The translations under genes were made by a program, and so were the position numbers. This document shows positions 5,525 to 47,792 of a stretch of 64,000 nucleotides of DNA, piece by piece (the first letter of the stretch is position 1; each line of letters begins with the position of its first letter). The notes below the pieces were generated by a model. The model saw only the letters and a list, made by a program, of their open reading frames with translations, was not told the origin of the DNA and did not search any database. The DNA is from Lachnospirales bacterium (GTDB taxonomy: Bacteria > Bacillota > Clostridia > Lachnospirales > CAMZNU01): the NCBI GenBank assembly GCA_047973385.1, contig JBKEBX010000012.1:65858-129857 (forward strand). The letters are read 5' to 3'.

Positions 5525-5553
5525 TATTTATTTATACACATCAAAGCTATATT

Positions 5554-5625: not shown

Positions 5626-6750
5626 CTAGTTAAGTGCTGTATAGTTGGTAATTGTAAACTCTAATGCACCATAAACGCCAGGAGCAATTGCATATTTTGG
5701 TAAAACAACAACTAACTGTGAATTATCGTTTATATAAAAGTTTGTATCTTCATCAATAACTAAATCATCAATGGAATCTTGGAAATAAAAACTATATTCT
5801 TCAGGGTCTTGTGCTTGTTGTACGCTTATTTGTGACTTTATTGAATTTTTTACAAATGTATTATAATCATCACCGTAAACATCTTCAAGAGTTAAAAAAT
5901 CGCCTGTTTCTTTATCGATAGTGTAGTATTTATCAGTTTGATTTGATGAACCAACTGCTACGAAAGAATATACTTGGAAAGATACATAATTATCGGAAAT
6001 ACCAACGATGTTGTAGCCAACTTCAGTACTTGGCTGTACATAGTCTTCAAGACTTCCACCAGTTTCCAAATAAGCATCTCTATATTCAGCTAAAATAGTT
6101 TCGTTGCTAATTTTAAAAGTATTCATATCTTCATTTACTGTTGAAAACAATACTTCTTCTGCTTGTGGAGAAAGACCAGCAGCAGCAATTTTATCTTCGA
6201 TTTGTTGACCATTATCTATAACATCAACATCATAATTAGGGTCAATATTTACGTCAACGTCATAATTAGGGTCGATATCTACGTCAACATCATAATTAGG
6301 GTCGATATTTGAATTTTCAGAGCCAGTAGGGTCTTGAATTTGTGGGCTGTTATCATATGGAGTAATTGCGTTTATAAAACGTGGAGAAACATAGGCTGTA
6401 TCCTTTGCGATTTTAGGAGCAGAAGCCTCAAGGAAAACTTCACCGTTGTACACATAGTTTCTATCGCCGATTGTAGCTTCAAAAACATCTTCGCCTTTTG
6501 TGAAAATGACTGTTTTAGTTTCAGCTATCCAAGAAACATCATATCCAAGAGCCTCAGCTGAAGTTCTTGCAGGGTCTAAGATTTCCATTGTATCACGGTC
6601 AATAACAGCGATTGGGTTAACGGCAGTAGCTGTTCCGTTACTTGTTGTTGTAACTGTGCTACTTGTAACTACGGGAGTTTCTGTATCTGCTAAAACAACT
6701 GTTGACAGAGCAAGTGTTGTTGCAAGTGTAAGAAAAACTAATTTTTTCAT
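5626..6750 (-). CDS. secreted protein: signal peptide + copper-amine-oxidase-N-like (stalk) domain + DPNYDVDV repeats + DUF3298/RsiV-like C-terminal domain
   Basis: MKKLVFLTLATTLALSTVVLA signal peptide. Domain assignment is from remembered family patterns. Start taken at MKKL. Confidence 0.55.
   Translation of the reverse strand: MKKLVFLTLATTLALSTVVLADTETPVVTSSTVTTTSNGTATAVNPIAVIDRDTMEILDPARTSAEALGYDVSWIAETKTVIFTKGEDVFEATIGDRNYVYNGEVFLEASAPKIAKDTAYVSPRFINAITPYDNSPQIQDPTGSENSNIDPNYDVDVDIDPNYDVDVNIDPNYDVDVIDNGQQIEDKIAAAGLSPQAEEVLFSTVNEDMNTFKISNETILAEYRDAYLETGGSLEDYVQPSTEVGYNIVGISDNYVSFQVYSFVAVGSSNQTDKYYTIDKETGDFLTLEDVYGDDYNTFVKNSIKSQISVQQAQDPEEYSFYFQDSIDDLVIDEDTNFYINDNSQLVVVLPKYAIAPGVYGALEFTITNYTALN
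6219..6310 (-). repeat. about 3 x 30-bp in-frame tandem repeat encoding DPNYDVDV(D/N)I
   Basis: gtcaatatttacgtcaacgtcataattagg / gtcgatatctacgtcaacatcataattagg, plus partial units on both sides. Confidence 0.9.
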
Positions 6751-6930
6751 AAGTATCACCATTCCTTTAAATAATATAATTTTCTATTGTATTTTTGATA
6801 AGTATAACCCTATTTATAAAAGTTATACATATTATAACGAGTTGAGCTTAAATTAAGTTTAAATTTTTAAGCTTATATTTATTATACGCATTCTTTAGTA
6901 AAATAGTTTCATAAATTTTAAAATCTAAGG

Positions 6931-9219
6931 TTAAAATCCTAATACAGTTAGAACTTTTTCTGCTACTTTTCTATTTTTACCTTTGAATGGGAAAGAATGT
7001 ATATGTATGGCAGGATTAAAGTTAAGTTCTATAATTCCATAATCTGAATTAGGGTTTGTGTAGTCTTCTATAATCATATCTACTCCATTAAATTTTGCAT
7101 CAACACTTTTTGATGAGTTTATAGCTACTTCTTTAAAAAAGGCATGTATGTTGTCTGTATGGTCTATACTGTCACCACCTGTTGAGATATTAGAATTCTT
7201 GCGTAAAAAAACTTGTTCATTATTTTGTGGGATATAGTTTTTATCAAGTCCTTTACTTTTTAAAAACATCTCCACGTTAGTATCAATTTTAATTTTCTCT
7301 AAAGGTGTTTTATAACCAACTCCACGAAGTATATTTTTATTTTTTTCTTCAACAAGTTTAGATATAGTAGATTTACCGTCACCAACTACGTTAGCGGGTA
7401 CACGCTCTAAAACTCCAGCAACTTCGTCACCTACAATTAAAAACCTGTATTCTATGCCTTTTATAAACTGCTCAACAATTACAGTGGTATCGTTTTTAAA
7501 GCCGACATCAATAGCTTGTTCTATATCTTCTTTACGTGCTTTTTCTTCAAATATAAACACGCCTATGCCGAAGTTTGTTGAGTTTGGTTTTATGACAAAC
7601 TTGCTATCTAAAGATAGTGCATATAAAAGAGCATCTTCTCTATTATTAAAGCTTTTACCCTTTGGAACAGGGATATTTTGCTCTTCTAAAATCTTTTTTG
7701 TAACAACTTTGTTTTCCATAATAAGCATAGATATATAGCTATCTTTACTTGTTTTTGTACACTGTTTTACATATTCAGTATGTCCATCTTTTGATAACTT
7801 TATAAAATTATCATTTTCATCTAAAATATCAACATATATTCCTTTTTTTATAGCCTCACGCATAAGTATTTGTGTTGATAACTCCATGTTTTCACAGCCA
7901 AAATATCTAAAAGGTGTTTTTAAAGCCTCTTTTTTATATTGGTTACCAAGCTTAACGAAATATTCGTCAAAATTATTTATGTTAATCATTTTTTGAAGTT
8001 TTGAATATAGCAACTGATTGTTAATGTAGTTTTGCTCAAAATCATTAACAATACTAAGGGAAGTTGGAATAGTTATGAAAACTTCTCGTATACGTCTAAA
8101 TATAGTATTTATATATGTATCTACTGTAAAACTACCGTCACAGAACTCTAAAAAAATATCTCTTGATGAACTAAGGGCGACTGTTTCTAAGTTGTTTTCG
8201 CCTTCAACATTCATAGTATCGCAATCACAGTCATCATATAGGAAACAAAAAAGTATAAATATTTTAAGTAAGTCAAGTTCTGCTAAAGATATACCACTTT
8301 TTTCAAGAGGGTTAACATCAATATTACGGATTTCAACATATTTAACCCCTTTTTCAACAATTTCCTGTAAGCTTGTTTTGTTTTTACCCTTTAGTCTAAT
8401 TGCTGTATAAATTTCTCGTTCGTCATAAATCTTTTTGTTTTTAATTGCATTTTTTACAGATTCAAGAAATATATCAACATTATCATAATCTAGGTCGATT
8501 GGTTCTGTATTTTTATATCCATATTTAGAATTTCTAAGAGAGTAGCCGGATATTTTATCTCCGTTTTTATCATATCCAAAAGGCGTAGCACCTTGCATAT
8601 AAGTTATAAAAAACTTATATCTATTATAGTTACGCATTATTTTAAAATAAACTTCCGTTCTAAAACGTTTATAAGTTATTTCTGTTTTTGAAAGAGTGTA
8701 AAATTTCTTTAAAAAAGTTTCTGAAAGAGAAAAGTTATAGTGTATACCAGAAATAAGTTGTTTATCTTTTCCGTATTTTTCTGTAAGATATTCACGGTAT
8801 CTTGTACTAGAGATGCCAAATTCTGTTTCATCAAACTTTGCGATTTCAATGGTATCTATATCAGTAATTTTAGGAAACCATGAGTATGGGTATATAATCT
8901 CATCTTCAGCTATTGCTTCTGAAAAAATATCATAACTTAAATTCATAAAGTTGTATAACTCTAGATTATTTTTGAAAACAGGGGATACAAACTCAAGTTG
9001 TGCCTCACTATAATCAGTCTTTATAAAAGGGTGTAGTTCTTTAGGTTCAAAAACCTTTGGGTGAGGGGTTCTTGATATAACACCTGAATCTTTGTGAACT
9101 CTAAGGGCTTCACGTTCTAAGCCTTGTTCTGTATCAAGTAAATCATATAAAAGGTTATTATCGTTTAGGAACGATAGTAACGCCGATTTGTTTTTTAACA
9201 AAGAATAAATAATATCCAT
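6931..9219 (-). CDS. gshAB: bifunctional glutamate-cysteine ligase / glutathione synthetase
   Basis: 762 aa. The N-terminal GLEREALRVH...TPHP matches gamma-glutamylcysteine ligase; the C-terminal half is ATP-grasp. Same architecture as streptococcal/listerial GshF. Confidence 0.85.
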   Translation of the reverse strand: MDIIYSLLKNKSALLSFLNDNNLLYDLLDTEQGLEREALRVHKDSGVISRTPHPKVFEPKELHPFIKTDYSEAQLEFVSPVFKNNLELYNFMNLSYDIFSEAIAEDEIIYPYSWFPKITDIDTIEIAKFDETEFGISSTRYREYLTEKYGKDKQLISGIHYNFSLSETFLKKFYTLSKTEITYKRFRTEVYFKIMRNYNRYKFFITYMQGATPFGYDKNGDKISGYSLRNSKYGYKNTEPIDLDYDNVDIFLESVKNAIKNKKIYDEREIYTAIRLKGKNKTSLQEIVEKGVKYVEIRNIDVNPLEKSGISLAELDLLKIFILFCFLYDDCDCDTMNVEGENNLETVALSSSRDIFLEFCDGSFTVDTYINTIFRRIREVFITIPTSLSIVNDFEQNYINNQLLYSKLQKMININNFDEYFVKLGNQYKKEALKTPFRYFGCENMELSTQILMREAIKKGIYVDILDENDNFIKLSKDGHTEYVKQCTKTSKDSYISMLIMENKVVTKKILEEQNIPVPKGKSFNNREDALLYALSLDSKFVIKPNSTNFGIGVFIFEEKARKEDIEQAIDVGFKNDTTVIVEQFIKGIEYRFLIVGDEVAGVLERVPANVVGDGKSTISKLVEEKNKNILRGVGYKTPLEKIKIDTNVEMFLKSKGLDKNYIPQNNEQVFLRKNSNISTGGDSIDHTDNIHAFFKEVAINSSKSVDAKFNGVDMIIEDYTNPNSDYGIIELNFNPAIHIHSFPFKGKNRKVAEKVLTVLGF

Positions 9220-10726: not shown

Positions 10727-11857
10727 TTACTTATTGAATAATTTGTCAAAAAAACCACGTTTATGGTCTTTGTACTCATCGCCCATAGCTTCGGCAAAGT
10801 CCATTAGTTTTTGTTTCTGCTCTTCGTTTAATGATTTTGGTATTTGCACTTTGAATTTAACATACATATCACCAACATAACGATTGTTTCGTACATCAGG
10901 CACACCTTTGCTCTTTAAAGTTACAACTGTGTCTGTTTGTGTACCAGCACGAACAGAATAGCTATCATTGCCGTAAATTGTAGGTATTTCAACATCAGCA
11001 CCCAGTGTAGCTTGTACAAATGTGATAGGTAAGTCTAAGAAAATATCATTACCTTTTCTTACATAATATTCATGTGGCATTAAGTTTACAACTACAAGTA
11101 AATCACCTTGAGTTCCGCCATTTTCACCCATTGCACCTTTTCCACGAATACGGATACTTTGACCTGTATTTATACCCTTTGGTATTTCAATTTTAATAGC
11201 AGTGTTTTTACGATAATGCCCACTACCACTACACTTTTTACATGGATTTTCAATAATTTTACCTTTACCAGAACATTTTGAACAAGTTCTTACAGATGTC
11301 ATAATACCTAGCATAGTTTGTTGTTGAACACGTTCTTGACCTGAACCTTTACAGTTTGGACAAGTTTTAGGTATGCTTTTACCCTCAGAACCTGTTCCGT
11401 TACAGCTATCGCATTTTGTATCAATAGGAAGTGTTAACTCCTTTGATGCACCAAAAACACTTTCTTCAAGTGTTATGTTTATATTTGTTTGAAGGTCAGC
11501 ACCACGTCTTGGGCCGTTGCTGTTTCTTCTTGAACCTCCACCAAAGAAGTCGCCGAAAATATCTCCGAAGATATCTCCCATATCAAAACCGTAACTACCA
11601 CCATAGCCACCATATCCGCCACCAGCTCCGTTTTCAAAAGCTGAATGACCAAATTGGTCATACTTTTGGCGTTTTTGTGAATCTTGTAGTACGTCATAAG
11701 CTTCACTTAACTCTTTAAACTTTTCTTCTGCTTCTTTGTTATCAGGGTTAGCATCGGGGTGATACTTCTTAGCTTTTGTTCTATATGCTTTTTTTAGTTC
11801 AGCGTCTGTCGCATTTTTAGATACGCCTAATACTTCATAATAATCACGTTTTGACAT
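10727..11857 (-). CDS. dnaJ: molecular chaperone DnaJ
   Basis: J-domain with HPD, G/F-rich region, four CxxCxGxG zinc motifs. Confidence 0.97.
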
Positions 11858-11955
11858 TTTTTCTCTCCAATATTTAATATGTATGATAATATCACATAAA
11901 GAGTGAAGAAAGTTGATTCTCCACCCTTATGATATTTTTAAAACATTATTTTTTA

Positions 11956-14434
<2,479 letters not shown>

Positions 14435-18680: not shown

Positions 18681-19853
18681 ATGGAAAATTTTATTTACAA
18701 TAACAGAACAGAAATAATTTTTGGTAAGGATACCCAAAAAGAAGTAGGAATGCATTTGCAAAAAAGAGGTAGCAAAAAAGTTTTACTTCATTATGGAGGA
18801 GGCTCTATTAAAAGAAATGGTGTTTATGACGATGTTATAAAATCCTTAAATGAACATAACATAGAATATGTTGAGCTTGGTGGCGTTGAGCCAAACCCAG
18901 ACATTGACCTTGCAAGAGAAGGTTCTAGGCTTGTAAAGGAACATGGCTTAGATTTTGTTTTAGCCGTTGGTGGTGGTTCTGTTATAGATAGTGCAAAGGC
19001 TATTTCTATGGGGTCGAAATATGATGGCGATGTATGGGATTTTTATGTAAACAAAGCCGTTCCAACAGAGTTTTTACCTGTTGCAACAATTTTAACTATT
19101 CCAGCTACAGGGAGCGAAAGCAGTACAAGTACAGTTTTGAGCAACAGAGAACTTTCTATGAAAAGAGGTTTAAATCATATTGAAATTCGACCTATATTTA
19201 GTATTTTAAATCCTGAAACTTGCTATACATTACCTGTAAATCAAATTGCTTACGGTGTTACAGACATTATTGCACATATATTTGAACGCTATTTCACAAA
19301 TGTTAATTACACAAAAATTACTGATGTAATGGCTGAGGGTTGGATGAAAGTTCTAATAAATGAAGTTGACATTTTACTTAAAGATAAAACAGATTATGAT
19401 GCATGGGCTGAAGTTATGTGGGGTGGAACGCTTGCACATAATAGACTTCTTGACTGTGGTAGAATAGGTTGTTGGGGTTCTCATAGAATTGAACATGAGA
19501 TAAGTGCAATTTATCCGGAAGTAGCACATGGTGCAGGTCTTGCCGTTGTTTTTCCGGCTTGGATGAAGTATGTATATAAATCAAATATTGATATTTTTGT
19601 TCAATTTGCAGTAAATGTTTTTGGTGTAGATGTAAATATGCGTAATCAAGAAGCTATTGCGCTTGAAGGTATTGCAAGGCTTGAGAAGTTTTATGAAGGA
19701 ATGGGACTTTCAACAAATCTAAAAGACTTAGGTGTAAAAGAATCAGACTTTGAGATAATGGCTGAAAAAGCTGTTATGTTCGGTGACATTGGTGAGTTTG
19801 TAAAATTATCAAAAAATGATATTGTAGAAATTTTTAAAATTGCATATAAGTAA
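18681..19853 (+). CDS. iron-containing alcohol dehydrogenase (butanol dehydrogenase/YqhD-like)
   Basis: GGGS(V/I)IDSAK motif, conserved His cluster, 390 aa. Confidence 0.85.
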   Translation: MENFIYNNRTEIIFGKDTQKEVGMHLQKRGSKKVLLHYGGGSIKRNGVYDDVIKSLNEHNIEYVELGGVEPNPDIDLAREGSRLVKEHGLDFVLAVGGGSVIDSAKAISMGSKYDGDVWDFYVNKAVPTEFLPVATILTIPATGSESSTSTVLSNRELSMKRGLNHIEIRPIFSILNPETCYTLPVNQIAYGVTDIIAHIFERYFTNVNYTKITDVMAEGWMKVLINEVDILLKDKTDYDAWAEVMWGGTLAHNRLLDCGRIGCWGSHRIEHEISAIYPEVAHGAGLAVVFPAWMKYVYKSNIDIFVQFAVNVFGVDVNMRNQEAIALEGIARLEKFYEGMGLSTNLKDLGVKESDFEIMAEKAVMFGDIGEFVKLSKNDIVEIFKIAYK

Positions 19854-19869
19854 AAATAAATGGGATTTA

Positions 19870-19907
19870 TTGCAATGTGTCATTATTTTAGTTTTGCAAT
19901 GTTTCCA
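19870..19907 (+). repeat. right-end fragment of the intergenic repeat family
   Basis: TTGCAATGTGTCATTATTTTAGTTTTGCAATGTTTCC. Confidence 0.6.
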
Positions 19908-19912
19908 AATAT

Positions 19913-19949
19913 AAAAAAAGTGTGAATTTTCAAAATTCACACTTTTTTT
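19913..19949. terminator. bidirectional intrinsic terminator shared by the convergent adh and pflA genes
   Basis: A7-gtgtgaatt-ttcaa-aattcacac-T7. Confidence 0.85.
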
Positions 19950-19956
19950 ATATTAA

Positions 19957-20711: not shown

Positions 20712-20957
20712 TTATAAATTATTGTGGAAAGTTCTTGAAATAACGTCGTCTTGTTGCTCCTTTGTGAGTTTAATGAAGTTCACAGCATAACCTGAAACTC
20801 TAATTGTTAAATTAGGGTAGTTTTCAGGGTGCTTTTGAGCGTCAAGAAGTGTATCTTTGTTTAGTACATTTACATTTAGGTGATGTCCACCTTTTTCAAC
20901 ATATCCGTCTAAAATTGAAACTAAATTATCTATTTGTTGTTCTGGTACTTTATTCAT
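20712..20957 (-). CDS. stand-alone glycyl-radical subunit (C-terminal PFL domain, GrcA/YfiD-like)
   Basis: [56 protein letters not shown] corresponds to the PFL C-terminus, including the RVSGYAV radical glycine. It has its own SD AAGGAGAAG 8 nt before the ATG. Confidence 0.9.
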
Positions 20958-20978
20958 AATAAACTTCTCCTTATAAAA

Positions 20979-23105
20979 TTAATCTTCTATTGTAACATTT
21001 GGTAATGCACAAGGTTTTGACAAATCACAGTTTGGATCGCCATTGAATAAATCAAGGTCTATATCTAAATCACCAAGTATGATTTTATCTTCTTTACCTA
21101 GAGCATCAGGTATTATAGTGAAAGTATTTGAAATACCATCTTGTGAGTATTTGAAAGGAAGTTTTGCAACTGATGAAAGTGATGCAGCAGCACCGTTTTC
21201 GTCACGACCATGCATAGGGTTTGCACCAGGAGCAAGAGGAACTCCAACTTTTCTACCATCTGGTGTAGAGCCTGTCTTTTTACCGTAAACTACATTAGAT
21301 GTAATTGTAAGAATTGACATCGTCGGGATACTTTGACGATATGTGTGGTGCTTTTCTATTTTTTCCATAAAGTTTTTAACAAGCATAGATGCTATATCAT
21401 CAACTCTGTCATCGTTATTACCGTATTTTGGGTAATCTCCTTCGATTTCGTAATCTGTTATGATACCATCGTCATCACGAACAACTTTAACTTTTGCGTA
21501 TTTTATAGCAGAAAGTGAGTCAGCAACAACGGAAAGTCCAGCTATACCTGTTGCAAAATATCGCTTAACTTCTCTATCATGTAAAGCCATTTGAACTTTT
21601 TCATATGCATATTTATCATGCATGTAATGGATAACGTTTAAAGTATTTACATATAAGTTAGCTAACCATTCAGTCATGTCCTCATATTTTGTAAAAACAT
21701 CATCAAAGTCAAGGTATTCACCTTCAACGGCTCTTGAACGAGGACCAACTTGGATTTTCATTTTTTCGTCCATACCACCATTAATAGCGTATAGTAAGCA
21801 TTTCGCAATATTTGCTCTTGCTCCAAAAAATTGTAATTCTTTACCTAAAACCATACTAGATACACAACAAGCAATTGCGTAGTCATCACCATGGTAGCCT
21901 CTCATAAGATCATCATTCTCATACTGAATTGATGAAGATATAATTGACATTTTTGCACAGAATTTTTTAAATTCTTCAGGTAATGATGTAGACCATAAAA
22001 CAGTCAAGTTTGGTTCAGGAGCAGGGGATAATGTGTTAAGTGTGTTTAAGTATCTAAAAGAAGTTTTTGTAACAAGGTGCTTACCTGTTAAGCTAATACC
22101 ACCAATACACTCAGTAACCCATGTTGGATCTCCTGAAAAGAGTTCATCATATTCACTTGTACGAGCAAAACGTACAATACGAAGTTTCATAATGAAATGG
22201 TCAATATATTCTTGTGCTTGTTCTTCTGTCAAAGTACCTTCTTCAATATCTCTTTGAATATAAATATCGATAAAAGTTGAAGTTCTACCTAAACTCATGG
22301 CAGCACCGTTTTGTTCTTTAACTGCTGCAAGATATGCAAGGTATGTCCATTGTATAGCTTCTTTTGCATTTACAGCAGGTTTAGAAATATCAAAACCATA
22401 TATTTTACCAAGTTCAATAAGTTCATATAAAGAACGGATTTGTTCGGATAGTTCTTCTCTTAAACGTATATTTTCTCCAGTCATTCTAATTGGAGCTGCA
22501 GAAAGTTCTTCCTTTTTCTCATCAATAAGTATATCAACACCATAAAGGGCAACTCTACGATAATCGCCGATAATTCTACCACGACCGTAAGCATCAGGTA
22601 ACCCTGATATTATACCTGCTTTTCTAGCTAACTTCATTTCGTCAGTGTAGGCATCGAAAACACCAGCATTATGAGTTTTTCTATATTTTGTAAAAATTTC
22701 CTTAGTTTCTTCATCTATGTTATATCCATGTTGGGAAAGAGCCGTTTCAGCAACTCTTATTCCACCAAAGGGTTGGAACGCTCTTTTAAGTGGTGCATCA
22801 GTTTGGAGTCCTACTATTGTTTCTAAATCTTTATCAATATATCCAGCTTTATGAGAAGTAATTGTAGCAACTGTTTTGGTATCCATATCTAAAACACCAC
22901 CAGCATCACGTTCAGCTTGTGTAATTTCTGAAAGTTTTTCCCAAAGCTTAGTTGTTTTTTCTGAAGCATCAGCGAGGAAAGAGTCATCTCCATCGTATGG
23001 AGTGTAGTTAAGAGTGATAAAGTCACGCACATTTGGTGCATTTGTTGACCAAAGTCCAGGGATAAAACCTCTCCATTCATTTGAGAATAGTGTTTTGTTC
23101 GACAT
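20979..23105 (-). CDS. pflB: pyruvate formate-lyase large (catalytic) fragment lacking the glycyl-radical domain
   Basis: 708 aa with the active-site ACCVS Cys-Cys. Homology ends at ...PDALGKED and is followed by a 35-aa acidic non-PFL tail and TAA. Confidence 0.9.
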
Positions 23106-23526: not shown

Positions 23527-24483
23527 ATGAAAAAATATGCATTTGGTATAGATGTTGGTGGAACAACGGTAAAAGTTGGTTTTTTTGATATTGAAGTTGA
23601 CGGCACATTAATCGATAAATGGGAAGTTTCCACAAGAAAAGATGAAGGTGGGAAATATATTTTAAGTGATGTAGCTAAAACAATAAATGATAAACTTTCT
23701 GAAAAGAATATAAACATTGAAGAAGTTAAGGGGATAGGTATTGGTGTTCCTGGACCTGTTTTAGAAGAATCAATTGTAAATAAATGTGTTAATCTTGGTT
23801 GGGGAGTTTTTAATGTAGCAGAGGAATCAAGTTTAATTTTTGGAATACCAAAAGAGAATATTTTAGTTTCAAATGATGCTAGTGTTGCATGTCTTGGAGA
23901 AATGTGGCTTGGTGCAGGTCGTGGATTTAGAGATTTAGTTTTAATTACTCTTGGTACAGGAGTAGGTGGAGGAGTAGTTTTAAATGGTAAAATAGTTTCA
24001 GGTGCTTTTGGTGCAAGTGGCGAAATAGGTCATATGAAGATTTCTCATACAGAAGATTTACAATGTGGTTGTGGCAAAAAAGGTTGTCTTGAACAGTATG
24101 CTTCTGCAACAGGTATAGTAAGAAAAATAAATGAAAAATTAGTTAATACGGATACACCATCAATATTGCGACAAGAACATTATTTATCAGCGAAATCTGT
24201 CTTTGATGCTGCGAAAAAAGGTGATGAAATTTCTATGGATATAGTAGATGAAGTATGTGAAGATTTGGCTTTAGCATTATCCTATGTATCTTGTACAATT
24301 GACCCTGAAATTTTCCTTATTGGTGGAGGAGTTTCAAAAGCAGGTGATATGCTAACCGATAAAATTCAAGAACGTTATACAGAACATTGCTTTCATGCCT
24401 CAAAAGAAACTAAGTTTAAAATAGCTGAGCTTGGGAATGATGCAGGTATGTATGGTGCTGTTAAAATGATTATAGATAAATAA
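23527..24483 (+). CDS. glcK: ROK-family glucokinase
   Basis: FGIDVGGTTVK ATP motif and the CGCGKKGCLE zinc motif. Start at MKKYAF behind SD GGAGGA. Confidence 0.9.
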   Translation: MKKYAFGIDVGGTTVKVGFFDIEVDGTLIDKWEVSTRKDEGGKYILSDVAKTINDKLSEKNINIEEVKGIGIGVPGPVLEESIVNKCVNLGWGVFNVAEESSLIFGIPKENILVSNDASVACLGEMWLGAGRGFRDLVLITLGTGVGGGVVLNGKIVSGAFGASGEIGHMKISHTEDLQCGCGKKGCLEQYASATGIVRKINEKLVNTDTPSILRQEHYLSAKSVFDAAKKGDEISMDIVDEVCEDLALALSYVSCTIDPEIFLIGGGVSKAGDMLTDKIQERYTEHCFHASKETKFKIAELGNDAGMYGAVKMIIDK

Positions 24484-24510
24484 TGCAAGTAAAACTGTTG
24501 TGAAGTATGT

Positions 24511-24553
24511 GGACATGAAAGAAACATAATTAAAAATTGTTTCTTTTATGTCC
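24511..24553 (+). terminator. hairpin after glcK
   Basis: ggacatgaaagaaaca...tgtttcttttatgtcc, a 16-bp stem with one G-U; weak T-tract. Confidence 0.55.
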
Positions 24554-24564
24554 AATTTTGTTGT

Positions 24565-24690
24565 ATGGCGACCTTGCAAAATATAGAAAAATCCATTTTC
24601 ATAATAAAACAACGATTTATGGCTTTTGTAAAAAGTGTGAAAAATTTTTTTCTTTTGCAATGTGACATTTTTTCAATTTGCAACCTTTCT
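24565..24690 (+). repeat. full-length copy of the intergenic repeat family (modules A+B+C)
   Basis: ATGGCGACCTTGCAAAATATAGAAAAATCCATTTTCATAATAAAACAACG...GCTTTTGTAAAAAGTGTGAAAAAT...CTTTTGCAATGTGACATTTTTTCAATTTGCAACCTTTC. Aligns along its whole length with 47652-47778. Confidence 0.85.
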
Positions 24691-24823
24691 ATATAAAGAA
24701 TAATAAAGAATATTTTTTCTATTTTTTTCATAGAATAATTAATATAAAAATTACGCAAAATAAAATAAAATATGGTTTTATAGGAGGTTAATATTAAAAA
24801 ACAAAGAGAGGAATTGATTTTTT

Positions 24824-26014
24824 TTGTGTAAAAAATTTTTTGTATTATTTTTAATACTAATGATATTATGTATAGGTACAATTATATATAAAGATAATAT
24901 TTCATTAACAATTGGCGAATCTGTTGTAGTTGAAACTTTCAACAATGTAGATGTAGAAACAATAGGTCAAAGCATAGATGTTATAAAAAAAGAAGATATA
25001 GAAATTTTAGGCAAGGAATTGGGTTTAAGTAGTGTAAAATTAAATCTTCTTGGTGTGCCTGTGAAAAAAATAGATGTGGAAGTTACGGAACCGAAAAAAT
25101 TAATACCTGTTGGTGTGACTTTAGGAATACGCATAAATACTAAAGGTGTTTTAGTTTTAGGTACAGGCAATGTTACAGATTTAGAGGGTAAGACTATTAA
25201 TCCAGCGTCAGATAAGGTTTTTTCAGGTGATATTATATATAAAATTGATGATGTTGAACTAAAATCAAAGGAAGAACTTATGGAATATGTTGAAAAAAGT
25301 GAAAAAGAAAGTGCCATACTTACCATAAGCCATAATAACGAAGTAAGTGAAGTGGAAGTACCTATTGTTAAATCTCAAGTGGATAATGTTAATAAAATTG
25401 GCATTTGGGTTAGAGATAGTACTCAAGGAATTGGTACAATGACATACATAGACCCTGAAAACAATCAATATGCTGCACTTGGTCATGGTATTGTTGATGT
25501 GGATACTAAGGAACTTATGAATGTTAAGGAAGGTAAGGCGTACCTATCTTCAATCGTTTCGGTAACAAAAGGTGAAAAAGGCTCTCCTGGTGAGTTAGTG
25601 GGGGAGATTACTATTCATGATGAAGTTGCAAATGTTGAAAATAACAAAGATTTTGGTATATATGGTACAGTTCATGGCATTGACTTAATAACAAAAAATC
25701 GTGAAGCCATCGAGATAGCTAGAGAAGATGAAATAACCGAAGGAAGTGCATACATTTTATGTAGTGTTAATCAATGGGAAGTTGAAGAATATGAAGTTGA
25801 AATAATGAGTATTGACTTTAAAAATAAAAACAATAAAAATTTTATTATTAAGATTACCGATGATGAACTACTTTCTAAAACAAGTGGAATAGTACAAGGT
25901 ATGAGTGGGTCACCAATAATTCAAAATAATAAATTTGTAGGGGCTGTTACTCATGTTTTTGTACAAGATCCAACTAAGGGATATGGAATTTATATTGAAA
26001 ATATGATAGACTAG
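24824..26014 (+). CDS. spoIVB: SpoIVB peptidase (S55)
   Basis: PDZ-like region plus GIVQGMSGSPII catalytic Ser motif. TTG start. Confidence 0.9.
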   Translation: MCKKFFVLFLILMILCIGTIIYKDNISLTIGESVVVETFNNVDVETIGQSIDVIKKEDIEILGKELGLSSVKLNLLGVPVKKIDVEVTEPKKLIPVGVTLGIRINTKGVLVLGTGNVTDLEGKTINPASDKVFSGDIIYKIDDVELKSKEELMEYVEKSEKESAILTISHNNEVSEVEVPIVKSQVDNVNKIGIWVRDSTQGIGTMTYIDPENNQYAALGHGIVDVDTKELMNVKEGKAYLSSIVSVTKGEKGSPGELVGEITIHDEVANVENNKDFGIYGTVHGIDLITKNREAIEIAREDEITEGSAYILCSVNQWEVEEYEVEIMSIDFKNKNNKNFIIKITDDELLSKTSGIVQGMSGSPIIQNNKFVGAVTHVFVQDPTKGYGIYIENMID

Positions 26015-26040
26015 CCATTGTTTCAACTTTGCAACGTTTA
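26014..26040 (+). repeat. module C fragment of the repeat family, overlapping the spoIVB stop codon
   Basis: GCCATTGTTTCAACTTTGCAACGTTTA. Confidence 0.5.
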
Positions 26041-26096
26041 AAATTGACTTTCTAAACTATATATGATATACTTAGGAAAATTTTGGAGGTGGATGT

Positions 26097-27074
26097 ATGA
26101 AAATAGCAGTTATAGCACCATCAGCAGGGCTTGGGCAAGTTTTTCCTCATATGGTAGATTTAGCAGTGGAAAAGTACAAAAAATATTATAACATTGATGT
26201 TGAACTTTTTGAAACCATAAAGATGACTTGTGAAGACGTTCTGAATAATCCTAAAAAACGTGCAGAAGATATGAATAAAGCTTTTTACGATGAAAGTATA
26301 GACTATGTGCATTCTCTAATTGGTGGAAATGATTCCGTTAGAATTTTAGATTTTATAGATTTAGATGCTCCAGATAAAGTTATTATCGGTTTTTCTGATG
26401 CAACGCCATATTTATCGTATCTTGCTATAAATGGAAAAACAGCCTATTATGGAGCGAGTATCCTAGCAGGTATGGCTGAAATGGATTTTTTAGGTGAAAA
26501 GTTTATAAAACATTTTGATGATGTTGTTATAAAAAAAGAAAAAGAAGTTGTATACCCTATTTACGATTTCTATGTAGATGGATTTAAAGATTGGAATGAT
26601 AAAAACAATAAAGGTGAACTTTTAGAAAAAACAGATACCGAAGGTCCTCGCGTTTTAAATGGTCAAGGTAAAGTATCAGGTAAACTTTGGGGTGGTTGTA
26701 TGGATTCTATTGAACAGTTTAAACAAATTAAGTATTATCCCTCTGAAAAATATCTTACAGATAAAATAATATTTTTTGAAACTTCAGAAGATAAGCCTTC
26801 TCCAGACCTAGTTAAACGCTGGGTTAGAAATTATGCAATGCAAGGTTTGTTTAATAGAAACAAAGCTGTAATTTTTGGGAACTTTGCCTTTTATAATGAT
26901 GAAGAAAAAGAGCAAGTTTATAAATATATAAAAGATATTATAAGTGAGTACAACGAAGATTTACCTGTGGTTGTAAACTGTCCAATTGGTCATACATATC
27001 CAACATGGGTATTGCCGTATAATGAAGTTTTTGAGATAGATTTGGATAATCTTAAATTTACTTTGAAAAGATAA
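26097..27074 (+). CDS. S66 peptidase family protein (LD-carboxypeptidase/MccF-like)
   Basis: GGNDS, GFSDAT (nucleophile Ser), WGGCM, FETSED and IGH blocks align with the E. coli LdcA motifs. Confidence 0.8.
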   Translation: MKIAVIAPSAGLGQVFPHMVDLAVEKYKKYYNIDVELFETIKMTCEDVLNNPKKRAEDMNKAFYDESIDYVHSLIGGNDSVRILDFIDLDAPDKVIIGFSDATPYLSYLAINGKTAYYGASILAGMAEMDFLGEKFIKHFDDVVIKKEKEVVYPIYDFYVDGFKDWNDKNNKGELLEKTDTEGPRVLNGQGKVSGKLWGGCMDSIEQFKQIKYYPSEKYLTDKIIFFETSEDKPSPDLVKRWVRNYAMQGLFNRNKAVIFGNFAFYNDEEKEQVYKYIKDIISEYNEDLPVVVNCPIGHTYPTWVLPYNEVFEIDLDNLKFTLKR

Positions 27075-27124
27075 AATAATAAAATATTTAAAAGGCAATG
27101 ATATTTAAGTTAAGTAAAATATAT

Positions 27125-27164
27125 AAAACGCACAAATTTATGATTGAAATATGTGCGTTTTTTT
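27125..27164 (+). terminator. intrinsic terminator
   Basis: aaaacgcaca...tgtgcgtttt plus a T-run. Confidence 0.7.
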
Positions 27165-27177
27165 ACGCTAAAAGACT

Positions 27178-27277
27178 CTGCAACGTTGTAAAACTAAAAT
27201 GATGGAACATTGCAAAAGCCACAAAGCTGTTGTTTTGTTATGAAAATGGATTTTTCTATATTTTGCAAGGTCGCCAT
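27178..27277 (-). repeat. inverted-orientation repeat copy with an internal deletion
   Basis: Reverse complement reads ATGGCGACCTTGCAAAATATAGAAAAATCCATTTTCATAACAAAACAACAGCTTTGTGGCTTTTGCAATGTTCCATCATTTTAGTTTTACAACGTTGCAG. The segment between the two CTTTTG direct repeats is missing. Confidence 0.85.
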
Positions 27278-27354
27278 TTATACTATGATTTAGTCATGGA
27301 CTTGTATATTTTTATGAAATCATTTATAATATATATAATATAAAAATTGGAGGT

Positions 27355-28206
27355 ATGATTTTGAGTATTAGAGATATAGATGTTAGTATAATTACTGAAC
27401 ATGTTGAAAAAATGTGCATAGATAGTAATTATTATATAGGTAAAGATATTGAAAAATCATTTAATAATGCTCTTGAAATAGAGGAAAACCCTTTGTCAAA
27501 AGAACTTTTTGAAATTTTACTTGAAAATTCTAAAATAGCAACAGAGGAAAGTTTACCAATATGTCAAGATACAGGTATGGCTATTATTTTTATAGAAATT
27601 GGCCAAGACGTGCATTTTGTTGGTAACCTTGAAAATGCAATCAATCAAGGTGTAAGACAAGGTTATGAAAAAGGATATCTTAGAAAATCTGTTGTAAAAG
27701 ACCCTGTAAATCGTGTTAATACAAAAGATAATACTCCTGCTATTATACATTATAAAATTGTTGAAGGTGATAAAGTTAAAATTACTGTATCTCCTAAAGG
27801 TTTTGGTTCTGAAAATATGTCCAGAACTAAAATGCTTAAACCGTCAGAAAGTATAGAGGGTGTTAAAGATTTTGTTATAGAAACTGTGAAAATTGCAGGT
27901 CCTAACGCCTGTCCTCCTATGATTGTTGGTGTTGGTGTAGGTGGAAATTTTGAGAAAAGTGCAATAATGGCTAAAGAGGCTTTACTTCGTGATGTAGGTT
28001 CTAAAAATCATGATGAAGTATGGGGTGATGTTGAGGTTGAACTTCTTGAACGTGTAAATAACCTTGAAATAGGTATTGGTGGATTTGGTGGTAAAACTAC
28101 GGCACTTGCAGTACATATAAACTCATACCCTACACATATAGCAGGTTTGCCTGTTGCTGTAAATATTGGTTGTCATGTTACAAGACATAATCAAGTTGTA
28201 ATATAG
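27355..28206 (+). CDS. class I fumarate hydratase, alpha (Fe-S) subunit
   Basis: Two-subunit class-I fumarase/tartrate dehydratase alpha pattern (PICQDTG, Cys ligands). The start may instead be TTG 27361, which has better SD spacing. Confidence 0.88.
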   Translation: MILSIRDIDVSIITEHVEKMCIDSNYYIGKDIEKSFNNALEIEENPLSKELFEILLENSKIATEESLPICQDTGMAIIFIEIGQDVHFVGNLENAINQGVRQGYEKGYLRKSVVKDPVNRVNTKDNTPAIIHYKIVEGDKVKITVSPKGFGSENMSRTKMLKPSESIEGVKDFVIETVKIAGPNACPPMIVGVGVGGNFEKSAIMAKEALLRDVGSKNHDEVWGDVEVELLERVNNLEIGIGGFGGKTTALAVHINSYPTHIAGLPVAVNIGCHVTRHNQVVI

Positions 28207-28216
28207 GAGGTATAAA

Positions 28217-28759
28217 ATGAAAAAAGTTATAAATACACCTATATCCGTAGAAGATGCAAGAACTTTGGAAATAGGTGAAGTTGTTTATATTACAGGTACA
28301 ATTTTCACTTTGCGAGATGCAGGACATAAAAGACTTGTTGAAATGCTTCAAAAGGGCGAAAATCTCGATGTTGACCTAAGAGGGGCGACTATATACTATG
28401 CAGGCCCATGCCCTAACCCTCCAGATAAAGTAATTGGTAGTATTGGCCCTACAACTTCTGTAAGAATGGACGCATATTCACCTTATTTAATTAAATGGGG
28501 GCTTAAAAATATGATAGGTAAAGGCTTTAGAAGTGAAGAAGTTATTGATAGTGTAAGAGAAAATGAGGGACTTTATCTTGTTGCAGTAGGTGGTGCAGCA
28601 GCACTTATGAGCAAATGTATAAAAAAAGTTGAGATAGTTGCCTTTGAAGATTTGGGAACTGAAGCTCTTCGTAAAATGGAAGTTGAAAATTTACCTGTTA
28701 TAGTGTCCATTGATACAAGAGGTAATTATGTATATAGCAATGCCGAAAAATTAAACTAA
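28217..28759 (+). CDS. class I fumarate hydratase, beta subunit
   Basis: 180 aa. GTIFTLRDAGHKRL and GPTTSVRMD motifs; adjacent to the alpha subunit. Confidence 0.88.
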   Translation: MKKVINTPISVEDARTLEIGEVVYITGTIFTLRDAGHKRLVEMLQKGENLDVDLRGATIYYAGPCPNPPDKVIGSIGPTTSVRMDAYSPYLIKWGLKNMIGKGFRSEEVIDSVRENEGLYLVAVGGAAALMSKCIKKVEIVAFEDLGTEALRKMEVENLPVIVSIDTRGNYVYSNAEKLN

Positions 28760-28760
28760 T

Positions 28761-28863
28761 GGGACATTGCAAAGAAAAAACAAATTTTCATACTTTAACA
28801 AATACCACAAGGTCGTTGTTTTGTTATGAGAACGTATTTTTCTATATTTTGTAATGTCACCAT
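28761..28863 (-). repeat. inverted-orientation repeat copy (modules A+B, no C), starting 2 nt after the fumB stop
   Basis: Reverse complement reads ATGGTGACATTACAAAATATAGAAAAATACGTTCTCATAACAAAACAACGACCTTGTGGTATTTGTTAAAGTATGAAAATTTGTTTTTTCTTTGCAATGTCCC. Confidence 0.85.
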
Positions 28864-28882
28864 GTAGATAGGAGATGATATA

Positions 28883-29716
28883 TTGAGCGATAATAGACCG
28901 ATTGGTGTATTTGATTCAGGTGTAGGCGGTCTAACTGTCGCATATGAGTTGTTCAAAATTCTAAAGGGCGAGGAGTTAATTTATTTTGCTGATTCTTTGA
29001 GAGCTCCCTATGGTAGCCTTGATAGCGAAGTTTTACTTAAATATTCTTGTGAAGTGGTAGATTTTTTTATTGGTTGTGATGTTAAATCGGTGGTTCTTGC
29101 TTGTAATACACTATGTGCGGCAGTTTTAGATGATTTGAAAATTATATATAAAGAATATGATATAATTTTTCAAGGTGTAATTGATGCAGGAGTTTTAGAA
29201 ATAATAGAAGAAAAAAGTGAAAATGTAGGACTTCTTGCAACTAAAAATACTGTTGATTTAGGTACATATGCAACTAAACTTAAAGAATATGACAATACAA
29301 TTAAACTTGTTTCAAAACCAGCAGCTATCTTTGTTTCTATTGTAGAAAAAGATATTATAGATAAACCTTTAGCATATGAAGCTGTAAAGTATCATTTAAG
29401 AGATTTAATAAATGCAAAAGTTGATACAATTGTACTTGGCTGTACACATTTTCCAATAATGCAAGATTTGATTACTCATGTGCTAACAGAAGATTATAAA
29501 GTAAATGTGAAATTGATAAATCCTGCTAGAAAGTCGGCTTCAAACTTATATGAAATTTTAAAAAAGAAAAATATGCTTGGAAGTTGTAGTGGTAGTAACT
29601 ATAGTAGTAAAATAAGTTTTTATACGAGTGGTTCAGTATGTCAGTTTAAAGGAATTTTAGATAGGATTTTTGATGAAGAATATGAAGTTAACAGAATTGA
29701 GATAGGTGAATATTAG
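28883..29716 (+). CDS. murI: glutamate racemase
   Basis: IGVFDSGVGGLTV, ACNT and GCTHFP motifs. TTG start behind AGGAGA. Confidence 0.93.
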   Translation: MSDNRPIGVFDSGVGGLTVAYELFKILKGEELIYFADSLRAPYGSLDSEVLLKYSCEVVDFFIGCDVKSVVLACNTLCAAVLDDLKIIYKEYDIIFQGVIDAGVLEIIEEKSENVGLLATKNTVDLGTYATKLKEYDNTIKLVSKPAAIFVSIVEKDIIDKPLAYEAVKYHLRDLINAKVDTIVLGCTHFPIMQDLITHVLTEDYKVNVKLINPARKSASNLYEILKKKNMLGSCSGSNYSSKISFYTSGSVCQFKGILDRIFDEEYEVNRIEIGEY

Positions 29717-29796
29717 ATGGCGACCTTGCAAAAAGTATGAAAACTTGTTTTTCTTTTGCAATGTGCCATTATTTCAATTTTGCAACGTTTCCAGAT
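29717..29796 (+). repeat. short repeat variant (left TIR joined to module B+C), starting at the base after the murI stop
   Basis: ATGGCGACCTTGCAAAAAGTATGAAAACTTGTTTTTCTTTTGCAATGTGCCATTATTTCAATTTTGCAACGTTTCCAGAT. Confidence 0.85.
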
Positions 29797-29822
29797 TTAA
29801 AAATAAATGTAAGGGTGATTAA

Positions 29823-30287
29823 ATGAAGTGTCCATTTTGTAGTAGTACAGATGTTAAAGTTGTAAACTCAAGAAGTGTAAACGAGGATTTAGAAATTAGA
29901 CGTAGACGAGAATGTGATAATTGTAAAAAACGTTTTAGTACTATTGAACGTGTAGAACTTTTAGAATTATTCGTTGTAAAAAGAGATGGTACAACTGAAA
30001 AATATTCTAGAGATAAGTTATTTAGTGGTATAAGTAAGGCTTGTAACAAAAGACCTATCGACACTGAAGACATAGAATACGTTGTTAATCATATTGAAAA
30101 TGCCATTTTTGTTAAAGGTGTGGAAGTTATATCATCTATTGATATAGGCGTTTTGATTATGAATGAGCTAAAGAAAATTGATGATGTTGCATATGTTAGA
30201 TTTGCTTCGGTTTGTAAGCAATTTGAAGATATTGAGAAATTTCAAGAAGAATTAAATCAGATTATAAAAGAACGAAAAAACAGCTAA
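29823..30287 (+). CDS. nrdR: transcriptional repressor NrdR
   Basis: MKCPFCSS...CDNCKKRF zinc ribbon plus ATP-cone. Confidence 0.95.
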   Translation: MKCPFCSSTDVKVVNSRSVNEDLEIRRRRECDNCKKRFSTIERVELLELFVVKRDGTTEKYSRDKLFSGISKACNKRPIDTEDIEYVVNHIENAIFVKGVEVISSIDIGVLIMNELKKIDDVAYVRFASVCKQFEDIEKFQEELNQIIKERKNS

Positions 30288-36845: not shown

Positions 36846-38069
36846 ATGTACACTTCATATGTTATACATACTGATAAAGGTTTGATTTCCTATTACACAC
36901 AAAATAATATATTATACAAAAGAGTTTATTTTAAAGGGAAATGGTCAAACTCATCTGTTATTCAAACAGGTGTAAGACAGTTTTTTTCACTAAATATAAT
37001 TGAGTCAGAAAAGATATTAATATTCACTCATAGTATAAAAAATATTGTACATTTTCTATATGAAGATGAAGATAGAGAATTTAAAAACAAGCCAATTTTA
37101 GAAGCTAATAATTTACAAAAAAATCCATACTTCTTTTGTATGATAGATGGAAATTTGTTTACAATTATTTATGCTTATCAAATTGAAAAATATAAATTTA
37201 ATATTGAAAAAATGGTACTAGAAGATGGAGTTTGGTCGGATAGTGTTTTTATAGATACGGTATACTCAACAAATGGTGTACCTTTTTACACTGTTAAAAT
37301 ATCACTTAACCATTATATGTTATTTTATGATACTGTTCAAAATAGCTTGAATTTATGTTATAGAGAAATTACTCCAAACAAGATTTCAGAAAAAACAGTT
37401 TACCATACAACCACATACGGTTTAATTGATAAAACTTTTTTAGTAACAAAAAATAGTATTTATACTGCATTTTTACAAAAATCTCTATTTTCATATCAAC
37501 TTATGTTTAGACAAAAAAGCAGAAATGGTACAAATAATGTAAAAGTTGTAGTTGAGGGGACTAAACTGAAAAATATTTTCATGTTTTTTTATGATGAGTT
37601 TATATACATTTTTTATAGCTACGGCGATGAATTCTTTTATGTTTATGGTAAAGAAGATAATGATGTTTTTTTCTCGAAACCACATAAATTATTAAGTAAA
37701 TTCAATATAAAAAATAATATAAAAAAGATTTGTATTTTAAATAAAGATCGAGAATATAACCAGATGCTTGCAGATGAAAAAAGTCCATATCAACCTATTG
37801 TCATAAACAGTATTAACCCATTTTTTCAAGATGTTCCTTATAGAAAAGTGGAAAATACTGAAAAGGACATAGATGAAAAAGTAGTTGAAGAGGTGAAGAA
37901 AGAAAATGATGAGAAAGTTAAAAAAGAAAAACTGAAATCAGATTCTTTGTTTGAACAAATAAACCAACTTAAAACTGAAATTTATTTAAAAAATAATGAA
38001 ATAGCTGAAATGAGAACTTATATTTCTGAAATGGAGAGTAAAGAAGATATGGCAACACCTAAAGATTAA
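36846..38069 (+). CDS. hypothetical protein with aromatic-rich beta-repeat-like N-terminal ~330 aa and a K/E-rich coiled-coil tail
   Basis: 407-aa ORF. Recurrent YxxxxxL(Y/F) strand-like segments. The C-terminal EKVVEEVKKENDEKVKKEKLK...QLKTEIYLKNNEIAEMR looks like a coiled coil. Confidence 0.55.
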   Translation: MYTSYVIHTDKGLISYYTQNNILYKRVYFKGKWSNSSVIQTGVRQFFSLNIIESEKILIFTHSIKNIVHFLYEDEDREFKNKPILEANNLQKNPYFFCMIDGNLFTIIYAYQIEKYKFNIEKMVLEDGVWSDSVFIDTVYSTNGVPFYTVKISLNHYMLFYDTVQNSLNLCYREITPNKISEKTVYHTTTYGLIDKTFLVTKNSIYTAFLQKSLFSYQLMFRQKSRNGTNNVKVVVEGTKLKNIFMFFYDEFIYIFYSYGDEFFYVYGKEDNDVFFSKPHKLLSKFNIKNNIKKICILNKDREYNQMLADEKSPYQPIVINSINPFFQDVPYRKVENTEKDIDEKVVEEVKKENDEKVKKEKLKSDSLFEQINQLKTEIYLKNNEIAEMRTYISEMESKEDMATPKD

Positions 38070-38073
38070 AATA

Positions 38074-38135
38074 ATGGCAAATTATAAAAGGGCAACGGTG
38101 CCAAATTACTTTTTCTAGATTTTACAATTAGCCAT
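38074..38135 (+). repeat. possible degenerate minimal copy of the repeat family
   Basis: ATGGCAAATTATAA...TTACAATTAGCCAT; only the termini resemble the family TIRs. Confidence 0.3.
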
Positions 38136-38142
38136 ATAAAAT

Positions 38143-38167
38143 AAAAAAATGCCATAGGCATTTTTTT
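38143..38167. terminator. bidirectional terminator
   Basis: aaaaaaatgcc-ata-ggcattttttt. Confidence 0.85.
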
Positions 38168-38170
38168 ATT

Positions 38171-39052
38171 TTAAGTATATTTTTCTAACACATTTATAAA
38201 CTTATCTATACTTGTATTATCTGTTTGTCTATATGCACATATAACTTTGAAAAAATCTTTATATTCATCTATTTTTACAAATTTTACATTTTCCGTTGCA
38301 AAATGTTGCATATGACTTGCGAGTAAGGTTATACCTACTTTACATTCAACCATCATAAGCATATTAAACAAAGTATTTGCTTTATATTCAACTTTTGGGC
38401 TGAAACCATTTTCTAAACAAATATTATTGATTAGATTATAGTCGTGATAAGATTTTTTAGGGTTGATTTGCACAAAGGGTTCATCTTCAATTTCTAAAAT
38501 AGAAATAGAATCAAACTTTGCAAGTGGATGACTTTTATGTACAGCAACGCACATATCATCATAAAAAAAGTGTTTTCTTAAAAGATTAGGTATGTTAGGC
38601 AACTCACTATCAGGTAATATAGCTATATCAACTTCTTTTTCATGAAGTGCATTTATAAGGGGCGAATATGAAAAATCAAACAAATCAACTTTTATATTTG
38701 GATATAAATCGTTAAACTTATTAATTATTTCAGGCAAAGTTCTTATAACGGCTGTACCTAAAAAACCGATTTTTACATTACCAGTTATACCAGTACCCAT
38801 ATCTTGAGTCATTTTTATGGCTTCTTTGTATTTTTGAATAATTTTTATTGCTTCATTATAAAAAACTTTACCTGCATTTGTAAGCTGAACATCTCGTTTA
38901 GTTCTAATAAACAATTTACAACCTAAATTTTGTTCAATATTCACAATTGCCTTACTTAAGTTAGGTTGTGTAATATGTAATTTCTCTGAGGCTTTTGTGA
39001 AACTTAGTGTTTCTGCTAATGTTACAAAGTACTCTAATTGTGCAATATTCAA
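38171..39052 (-). CDS. LysR-family transcriptional regulator
   Basis: NIAQLEYFVTLAETLSFTKASEKLHITQPNLSKAI HTH. TTG start 6 nt after GGGAGG. Divergent from the catabolic cluster. Confidence 0.9.
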   Translation of the reverse strand: MNIAQLEYFVTLAETLSFTKASEKLHITQPNLSKAIVNIEQNLGCKLFIRTKRDVQLTNAGKVFYNEAIKIIQKYKEAIKMTQDMGTGITGNVKIGFLGTAVIRTLPEIINKFNDLYPNIKVDLFDFSYSPLINALHEKEVDIAILPDSELPNIPNLLRKHFFYDDMCVAVHKSHPLAKFDSISILEIEDEPFVQINPKKSYHDYNLINNICLENGFSPKVEYKANTLFNMLMMVECKVGITLLASHMQHFATENVKFVKIDEYKDFFKVICAYRQTDNTSIDKFINVLEKYT

Positions 39053-47778: not shown

Positions 47779-47792
47779 ATATACAAAATTAT

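Follow-up and report, generated by a model that had tools for sequence, protein, structure and literature searches.

The Correia elements (CREE/NEMIS) of Neisseria and the RUP elements of Streptococcus pneumoniae are bacterial MITEs, i.e., non-autonomous DNA transposons. The repeat family described here resembles them in a length on the order of 100-160 bp, in terminal inverted repeats, and in non-coding, dispersed intergenic copies on both strands. Further points of likeness are that many copies exist, that long and short forms differ by an internal deletion, that the element is able to fold into a long hairpin, and that the repeats at its flanks are very short. For repeats of the REP, ERIC and BOX type, a role as stabiliser or terminator at the 3' end of transcripts has been proposed. 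Two MITEs of the IS6 family, MITEBth2 and MITEHarch3, are listed in ISfinder (PMC6807381, PMC7986276). The inverted repeats of the IS6 family follow the consensus GGTTCTGTTGCAAA, in which G1, G2, G7 and G10 are nearly invariant (Harmer and Hall, PMC6807381). The TTGCAA in the ends of IS6/IS26 acts as a bidirectional -35 box (PMC6807381).

The family was found in a window of 64,000 nucleotides (the whole stretch of DNA that was analysed), which has a G+C content of 31 %. The window is ordinary chromosome and carries the dnaK operon, pyruvate formate-lyase, spoIVB, fumarase, nrdR, tRNA synthetases and PNPase. Its SpoIVB is identical to MFV0440303.1 from a "Lachnospirales bacterium" MAG, and the next relatives are 58-60 % identical. 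The repeats are small (less than about 300 bp) and non-coding, with terminal inverted repeats and multiple dispersed copies, as is general for MITEs. We therefore read them, with a probability of about 0.7, as a MITE of about 125-135 bp at full length, which would be moved by a transposase encoded elsewhere. This supports the original prediction of a MITE/REP-like intergenic element, in which the repeat had been divided into modules A, B and C.

The left end of the element reads (T)ATGGCGACCTTGCAAAA. On the right, the same motif of about 19 nt occurs twice in tandem, about 24 nt apart and inverted relative to the left end. The first occurrence, U1 (TTTTGCAATGTGCCAT), is the end of module B, and the second, U2 (TTTTGCAACGTTTCCAT, with the variant TTTAGGYGTTGCCAT), is module C. 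The terminal inverted repeats are formed by the left end with U2 or U1 over about 15-19 nt. The left end is close to the reverse complement of the module B end, as had been claimed, with a 1-nt difference in length. The inverted ends of the family and its modular deletion variants are real; because the end motif is present twice in tandem on the right side, the outer right terminus is module C (U2) and not module B. Modules A and B together can form a long imperfect hairpin via pairing of the left end with U1.

An nhmmer profile was built from three full copies (24562-24695, 47649-47785 and 28729-28866) and run over the 64-kb window, over which separate left-end and right-end profiles were also run. 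All 11 loci were recovered by the full-copy profile on both strands, with E values from 1e-37 to about 0.1, and a general search for repeats across the whole window grouped the direct and inverted matches into these families again. The copies, with short names in brackets where these are used below, and the hairpins near them are as follows.

24562-24695 (24565), plus strand: full-length copy with the left end ATGGCGACCTTGCAAAA, internal region, U1 and U2; nhmmer E 7e-37.
47649-47785 (47652), plus strand: full-length copy, 89 % identical to the 24565 copy; nhmmer E 5e-37.
About 28730-28866 (28863r), minus strand: full-length copy, inverted; nhmmer E 6e-37.
27174-27280 (27277r), minus strand: internal-deletion variant, about 30 nt lost between CTTTTG direct repeats; nhmmer and end profiles.
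29714-29796 (29717), plus strand: short variant of about 80 nt, left end fused to module B; full-copy and end profiles.
38046-38138 (38137r), minus strand: short form, diverged, both ends present (ATATGGCTAATTGTAAAA ... TTAGGTGTTGCCATAT); left-end profile E 4e-6, right-end profile E 2.5e-8.
46166-46255, plus strand: intact left end with a degenerate remainder; left-end profile E 3e-10.
5349-5527, plus strand: degenerate left end, module B (5366-5411), an insert, and U1 plus U2 (5490-5527); profiles and sequence.
19860-19911, plus strand: minimal variant ATGGGATTTA-TTGCAA-TGTGTCAT ... U2; right-end profile E 1.5e-10.
26014-26044, plus strand: right-end fragment, partial U1 plus U2; right-end profile E 2.5e-6.
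2457-2506, plus strand: right-end fragment, U1 plus degenerate U2; right-end profile E 3e-3 and direct-repeat family.
2420-2465, 5268-5334, 19915-19950, 24510-24556, 27105-27150, 38140-38165 and 47794-47830: terminator-type hairpins near copies.

The full-length copies 24565-24690 and 47652-47778 had been reported to align end to end, and they did so with 89 % column identity. Moreover, the full-copy profile matched 27180-27279 (minus strand, E 3e-17), 29721-29796 (plus, 8e-15), 5366-5411 (plus, 6e-6), 46167-46198 (plus, 2e-5) and 38047-38187 (minus, 3e-3), with weak matches at 19869-19911, 2456-2489 and 5492-5523. The right-end profile found 10 occurrences in the window (E 5e-14 to 3e-3), and the left-end profile 7 (E 2e-12 to 3e-5). 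The predicted number of at least 10-11 copies in 64 kb was thus borne out by the profiles at 11 loci, and every further locus that had been named proved real with the full-copy and end profiles. A locus that had been given only as a possibility, 38074-38135, is a true member with an actual span of about 38046-38138. The supposed fragment at 19870 is also a real locus, but it looks like a minimal complete copy that starts from ATGG at 19860. The copies measure 52-137 bp, except for the copy of 179 bp with a foreign insert. The pattern GG-N5-TTGCAAA occurs seven times in the window against 0.76 expected from shuffles, and six of the seven lie inside elements, which excludes a chance origin of the repeats.

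On comparison of the copies, the short variants are deletions between short internal direct repeats. The direct repeat shared by modules A and B, which had been noted at the outset, is real, and the 29717 copy is the exact deletion product between its halves, with the left end joined to module B across the 19-nt repeat. The minimal copy 19860-19911 would fit a fusion of two TTGCAA hexamers, one from the left end and one from U1, with loss of the DNA between them, if its first part is correctly taken for a left end. The copies are also mosaic: the 24565 and 27277r copies are alike in the left 50 nt (48/50 matches) and diverged in the right 46 nt (32/46). The copy 5349-5527 is interrupted at TTGCAA|TGTGCCAT by a unique insert of about 85 nt (window 5411-5491). 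This insert contains the perfect hairpin AGTAATTTCC-TAT-GGAAATTACT, and no second copy of it was found in the window or in related loci.

The flanks of the elements read A-N-A-T on both sides, in direct and not inverted orientation; on each side it is the second base that varies. They match exactly in the 29717 copy (AGAT/AGAT) and in the 47652 and 38137r copies (ATAT/ATAT), are one base off in the 24565 and 28863r copies, and are unmatched in 27277r. A direct flank match of 2-4 bp was present in three to five of the six complete copies, depending on boundary placement. The informative flank base matched in four of the six, with an estimated p of about 0.07, so that a target duplication is not statistically established. 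The flanks would fit a duplication of 2 bp, in which case the termini would be TG...CA, or one of 3-4 bp, in which case they would be GG...CC(A); with six copies, duplication and target preference would fit alike. No flank duplication of 5-9 bp was present in the six complete copies, and a duplication of 8 bp was absent at all 81 boundary offsets.

The last result bears on an alternative in which the family is an IS6/IS26-derived MITE moved by an IS6-type DDE transposase, with TTGCAA also acting as an outward -35 box, as in IS26/IS257. In its favour, the U2 end reads GGAAACGTTGCAAA inward, has G1, G2, G7 and G10 together with TTGCAAA, and agrees with the IS6 consensus at 10 of 14 positions. 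The enrichment of the GG-N5-TTGCAAA skeleton and the precedent of MITEBth2 and MITEHarch3 point the same way. However, the left end (GGCGACCTTGCAAA) is without G7 and agrees at 9 of 14 positions, and no element end comes within 3 mismatches of the 14-bp consensus. The 8-bp target duplication that defines the IS6 family was missing at every offset, and a conserved AT dinucleotide lies outside the GG at either end, which sets the elements apart from IS6 ends. Furthermore, no IS6 transposase (DDE_Tnp_IS240) was found among the window ORFs, and the bases G1, G2, G7 and G10 are not specific, occurring in the ends of other IS families too (PMC6807381). Because of the ends at 9-10 of 14 positions and the missing 8-bp duplication, the IS6/IS26 likeness is kept as resemblance and not as membership, and descent from this family is considered unlikely.

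The copies of the preferred MITE reading are placed between genes that are functionally unrelated, and five consecutive intergenic regions (24.5-29.8 kb) hold one copy apiece. The claim that every copy is intergenic was nearly true, with two copies that touch coding sequence (28730-28866 and 26014-26044). The right end of the former overlaps the last 30 nt or so of the ORF for the beta subunit of fumarase, whose stop is at 28759, and its left end lies 17 nt ahead of the start of a racemase ORF (28883); the latter is cut exactly at the spoIVB stop codon. The 24562-24695 copy sits between the terminator of a ROK kinase gene and spoIVB. The copy 29714-29796 begins right after the racemase stop (29716) and lies 26 nt before nrdR. 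The copy 47649-47785 is flanked by a stop codon (47622) and a terminator hairpin (about 47794-47830), and the minimal copy follows the alcohol dehydrogenase stop codon by 7 nt, with a bidirectional terminator next to it. A terminator hairpin also adjoins the copy 38046-38138, and the fragment 2457-2506 stands directly after one. Overall, seven of the eleven copies have a terminator-type hairpin no more than about 20 nt away, and eight are oriented as the upstream gene. The proximity to terminators could reflect an insertion preference for the adjacent AT-rich DNA, or just the small size of the 3' intergenic regions. No transposase, integrase or Y1/RAYT domain was detected in the 60 main ORFs of the window, in agreement with what had been observed at first.

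Some neighbouring features are described for their own sake. The genes of spoIVB and an LD-carboxypeptidase are adjacent in the window (24824-27074), and in the related contigs L111 (5812-15017) and L126 (6204-11653) they are 4-6 genes apart, separated by TetR, glycosyltransferase and other genes. The truncated fragment 26014-26044 at their junction suggests that the adjacency may have arisen by an element-associated deletion. The pyruvate formate-lyase gene (20712-23105, minus strand) is split: a 708-aa ORF stops in the middle of the glycine-radical domain (profile positions 2-51), and positions 51-106 are encoded by a second ORF of 81 aa, which has an AAGGAG ribosome-binding site to itself. 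The gene appears to be truly divided in two, in a manner resembling GrcA/YfiD, rather than broken by a frameshift. A 187-aa ORF (47059-47622) directly upstream of the 47652 copy has only the LysR substrate-binding domain, without HTH, and may be a truncated regulator. Three tandem repeats of 30 nt at 6221-6310, 87-93 % identical, encode a 10-residue repeat within the ORF 5626-6762 (minus strand), which has the domains Cu_amine_oxidN1 and DUF3298. Overlapping periodic repeats of 9-21 nt (CTTTTTCTTCAGC...) were found at 54619-54767 in the ORF 54427-55065 (minus strand), whose protein has a low-complexity, charged segment and gave no confident Pfam match.

The window was compared with a second strain, an independent Logan assembly of run SRR30067236, which is 99.5-99.9 % identical to it. 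The contig L112 (2,674 bp) of this assembly has both ends inside copies, namely 24565 and 27277r. Another contig, L129, ends inside the 47652 copy at window position 47733, and its full length of 17,970 bp would place the other end inside the 29717 copy, judging from its size. These contig ends inside copies, three observed and a fourth deduced, indicate the behaviour of a high-copy repeat in short-read assembly. No insertion polymorphism or empty site was seen in this sole comparison strain, which has the same copies, and the diverged copies 38046-38138 and 46166-46255 showed no indels in it.

Diverged members were also present in relatives with about 58 % SpoIVB identity, at non-orthologous positions.

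L110 (related metagenome contig), 21112-21185 and 13485-13612: diverged members; E 9e-6 and 4e-3.
L126 (related MAG, GCA_047974615.1), 11972-12009: well-kept U1-U2 module, 31/35 positions shared with the window; E 7e-8.

Family members were not detected in six further related contigs (L111, L125, L127, L128, L130 and L131). The relatives carry other repeats as well. A second kind of MITE-like repeat, about 165 nt long, occurs in L126 at 7660-7822 and 11813-11975, with the inverted ends (GA/GG)GGTGCTGATAAAGTC ... GACTTTATCAGCACC. The copy at 11813-11975 directly abuts the U1-U2 module, and the outer inverted repeat of this copy (CAATGGAG / CTCCATTG) passes into TTGCAATG of U1. L110 has an intergenic repeat of 94 nt in two copies (13383-13476 and 18770-18863; 76 % identical), one of which stands immediately upstream of the diverged member 13485-13612.

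The family had been called undescribed, and no match was found for it in Rfam, PLSDB, phages, viral contigs, JGI metagenomes or the literature, where the end sequences did not occur in the full text of about 8 million papers. At the gathering threshold, Rfam reported only a T-box and two tRNAs in the whole window. The T-box leader (50189-50392, 116 bits) lies upstream of the cysteinyl-tRNA synthetase gene (50436-51827), and the two tRNA genes are adjacent (49502-49652). A permissive Rfam scan of 24400-30000, which covers five copies, gave no match in any of them. With blastn, PLSDB plasmids and INPHARED phages yielded nothing beyond short, AT-rich matches by chance; the best of them, in a Clostridium butyricum megaplasmid, falls in an unannotated spacer at a partition gene. 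In viral contigs, a 17-mer had 8 chance matches and two right-end patterns had none. In JGI metagenomes, a 28-mer had no match, and a degenerate right-end pattern had 11 chance matches, none of which was confirmed by nhmmer. Against a genome collection, the 17-mer ATGGCGACCTTGCAAAA had at least 101 chance matches in unrelated phyla, and the element was in none of the matches listed. As far as these searches tell, the repeat family is uncatalogued.

The coding and structural properties of the element were then considered. A small protein was proposed because the element starts with ATG, and this was rejected: the frame from that ATG is interrupted in five of six copies, with early stops in all but the 24565 copy, where it is open for 43 codons. 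A sigma-54 promoter (TGGCAC-N5-TTGCA) was rejected from the sequence, because the GG-to-GC spacing is 9 nt here and not 12. Outward hybrid promoters from TTGCAA were also set aside; 38 promoter-like sites were found against 30 +/- 6 expected, with poor spacings at the copies. No terminator-like sites were called inside the elements. Fold z-scores against shuffled sequence ranged from -0.3 to -4.9 across copies; most were unremarkable (-0.3 to -1.8), and the best-folding copy was 28730-28866, for whose two strands the scores were -2.6 and -4.9. RNAalifold predicted 14 pairs between the left end and U1, with a covariation term of +1.45. The end pairing raised in the original prediction showed no covariation in this analysis; substitutions mostly break the pairs, with a single double change. 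A structured RNA was thus rejected in view of the missing covariation, the mostly unremarkable z-scores and the lack of an Rfam match, and no sign of structural selection on the element was found. The broken pairs would fit ends that are recognised by a protein rather than a selected RNA or DNA structure.

These results weigh on the idea of a cis element maintained by the host, in which the two TTGCAAYGT repeats of U1-U2, spaced at 24 nt, would serve as an array for protein binding, or the hairpin would stabilise or terminate transcripts at their 3' ends. U1-U2 is the most widespread and best-conserved part of the family, present at 10 of the 11 window loci and kept at 31 of 35 positions in a species with 58 % SpoIVB identity, which is better than neutral decay and counts against the MITE reading; the strong right-end conservation could instead reflect a host function. 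Such a function is also in line with the nearby terminator hairpins, the shared orientation with the upstream gene and the copies that fold better than shuffled sequence. However, both orientations occur, the copies are truncated, mosaic and interrupted, covariation is absent, the pairs are broken by substitutions, and the z-scores are mostly ordinary. Terminator-like sites inside the copies and an excess of promoter-like sites are missing, as are Rfam matches, and the flanking genes have unrelated functions. This explanation is regarded as rather improbable.

A freer reading, which we hold to be quite improbable, is that U1-U2 (about 40 nt, found alone at several 3' gene ends) is the functional core, a putative binding array for a host or element protein that marks terminator-proximal DNA, with the hairpin part optional, or that an IS26-like enzyme moves the family without the 8-bp duplication. 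Either possibility, if true, would make the family more than a decaying selfish repeat. Finally, a REP-like palindrome spread by a RAYT (an IS200/IS605-like tyrosine transposase), with the minimal form ATGGNNNNN-TTGCAA-NNNNCCAT as the basic unit and the long forms as expansions, would agree with the minimal copy 19860-19911, which is in essence a palindrome of about 24 nt around a central TTGCAA, with U2 after it, with the intergenic, terminator-proximal location, with the lack of a clear target duplication, and with ANAT at the left flank and right terminus, reminiscent of IS200/IS605 cleavage sites, but it is very improbable, since the window has neither a RAYT nor a Y1 transposase, the copies are single and not in BIME-like arrays, and the full element of about 130 nt, with 19-nt inverted ends, far exceeds REP size and has true inverted-repeat ends instead of subterminal hairpins on one strand.

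Under the preferred reading of a non-autonomous MITE, the end motif of about 19 nt, with one occurrence at the left end and two at the right, would provide binding sites for a transposase acting in trans. The element would insert at A-N-A-T sites in AT-rich DNA between genes, frequently next to a terminator, with a short duplication of 2-4 bp. The element would have built up to high copy number in the host species and then decayed. Slippage or recombination between the TTGCAA, CTTTTG and 19-nt A/B repeats may have produced the short forms and the right-end-only fragments, and exchange between copies the mosaics. The existence of the family, its structure, its lack of coding capacity, its abundance and its occurrence in relatives are established, and transposition, the enzyme and the duplication are inferred. 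Counting against this reading, a transposase with matching ends was not found in the window, and the comparison strain showed neither an empty site nor insertion polymorphism.

It is no surprise to meet an uncatalogued MITE in an uncultured Firmicute, and the practical value of the family is modest. It explains the fragmented assemblies of the host lineage, because contigs end inside copies. Moreover, copies mark rearrangement junctions, such as that of spoIVB and the LD-carboxypeptidase gene with its truncated copy, and the family offers a ready marker for strain typing and insertion polymorphism in this uncultured Lachnospirales clade. If the true partner were an IS6/IS26-like transposase, the family would represent an unusual, massive chromosomal amplification of a MITE from a clinically important family; nothing yet requires this.

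Compared with known systems, the elements share with IS6/IS26 ends the GG-N5-TTGCAAA skeleton, whose palindromic TTGCAA occupies positions 8-13, and one of the end types has G7 and G10 as well. At 227 and 336 bp, the known MITEs of IS6 (PMC7986276) are longer than the present element of about 130 bp. The ERIC/IRU and REP/BIME repeats of Enterobacteria are, like the present family, imperfect palindromes in intergenic and often 3'-proximal transcribed regions, whereas the sequences and the organisation differ, with no RAYT in the window and no alternating clusters here. REP/BIME are clustered palindromes of 20-40 nt that go with a RAYT; the units here are single, about 80-135 nt long, and no Y1 gene is in the window. 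To our knowledge, the family is unrelated in sequence to the Correia and RUP elements. It differs from both in the A-N-A-T flank in place of a strict TA, in the end motif that occurs twice in tandem on the right, and in its host, which belongs to an uncultured Lachnospirales lineage.
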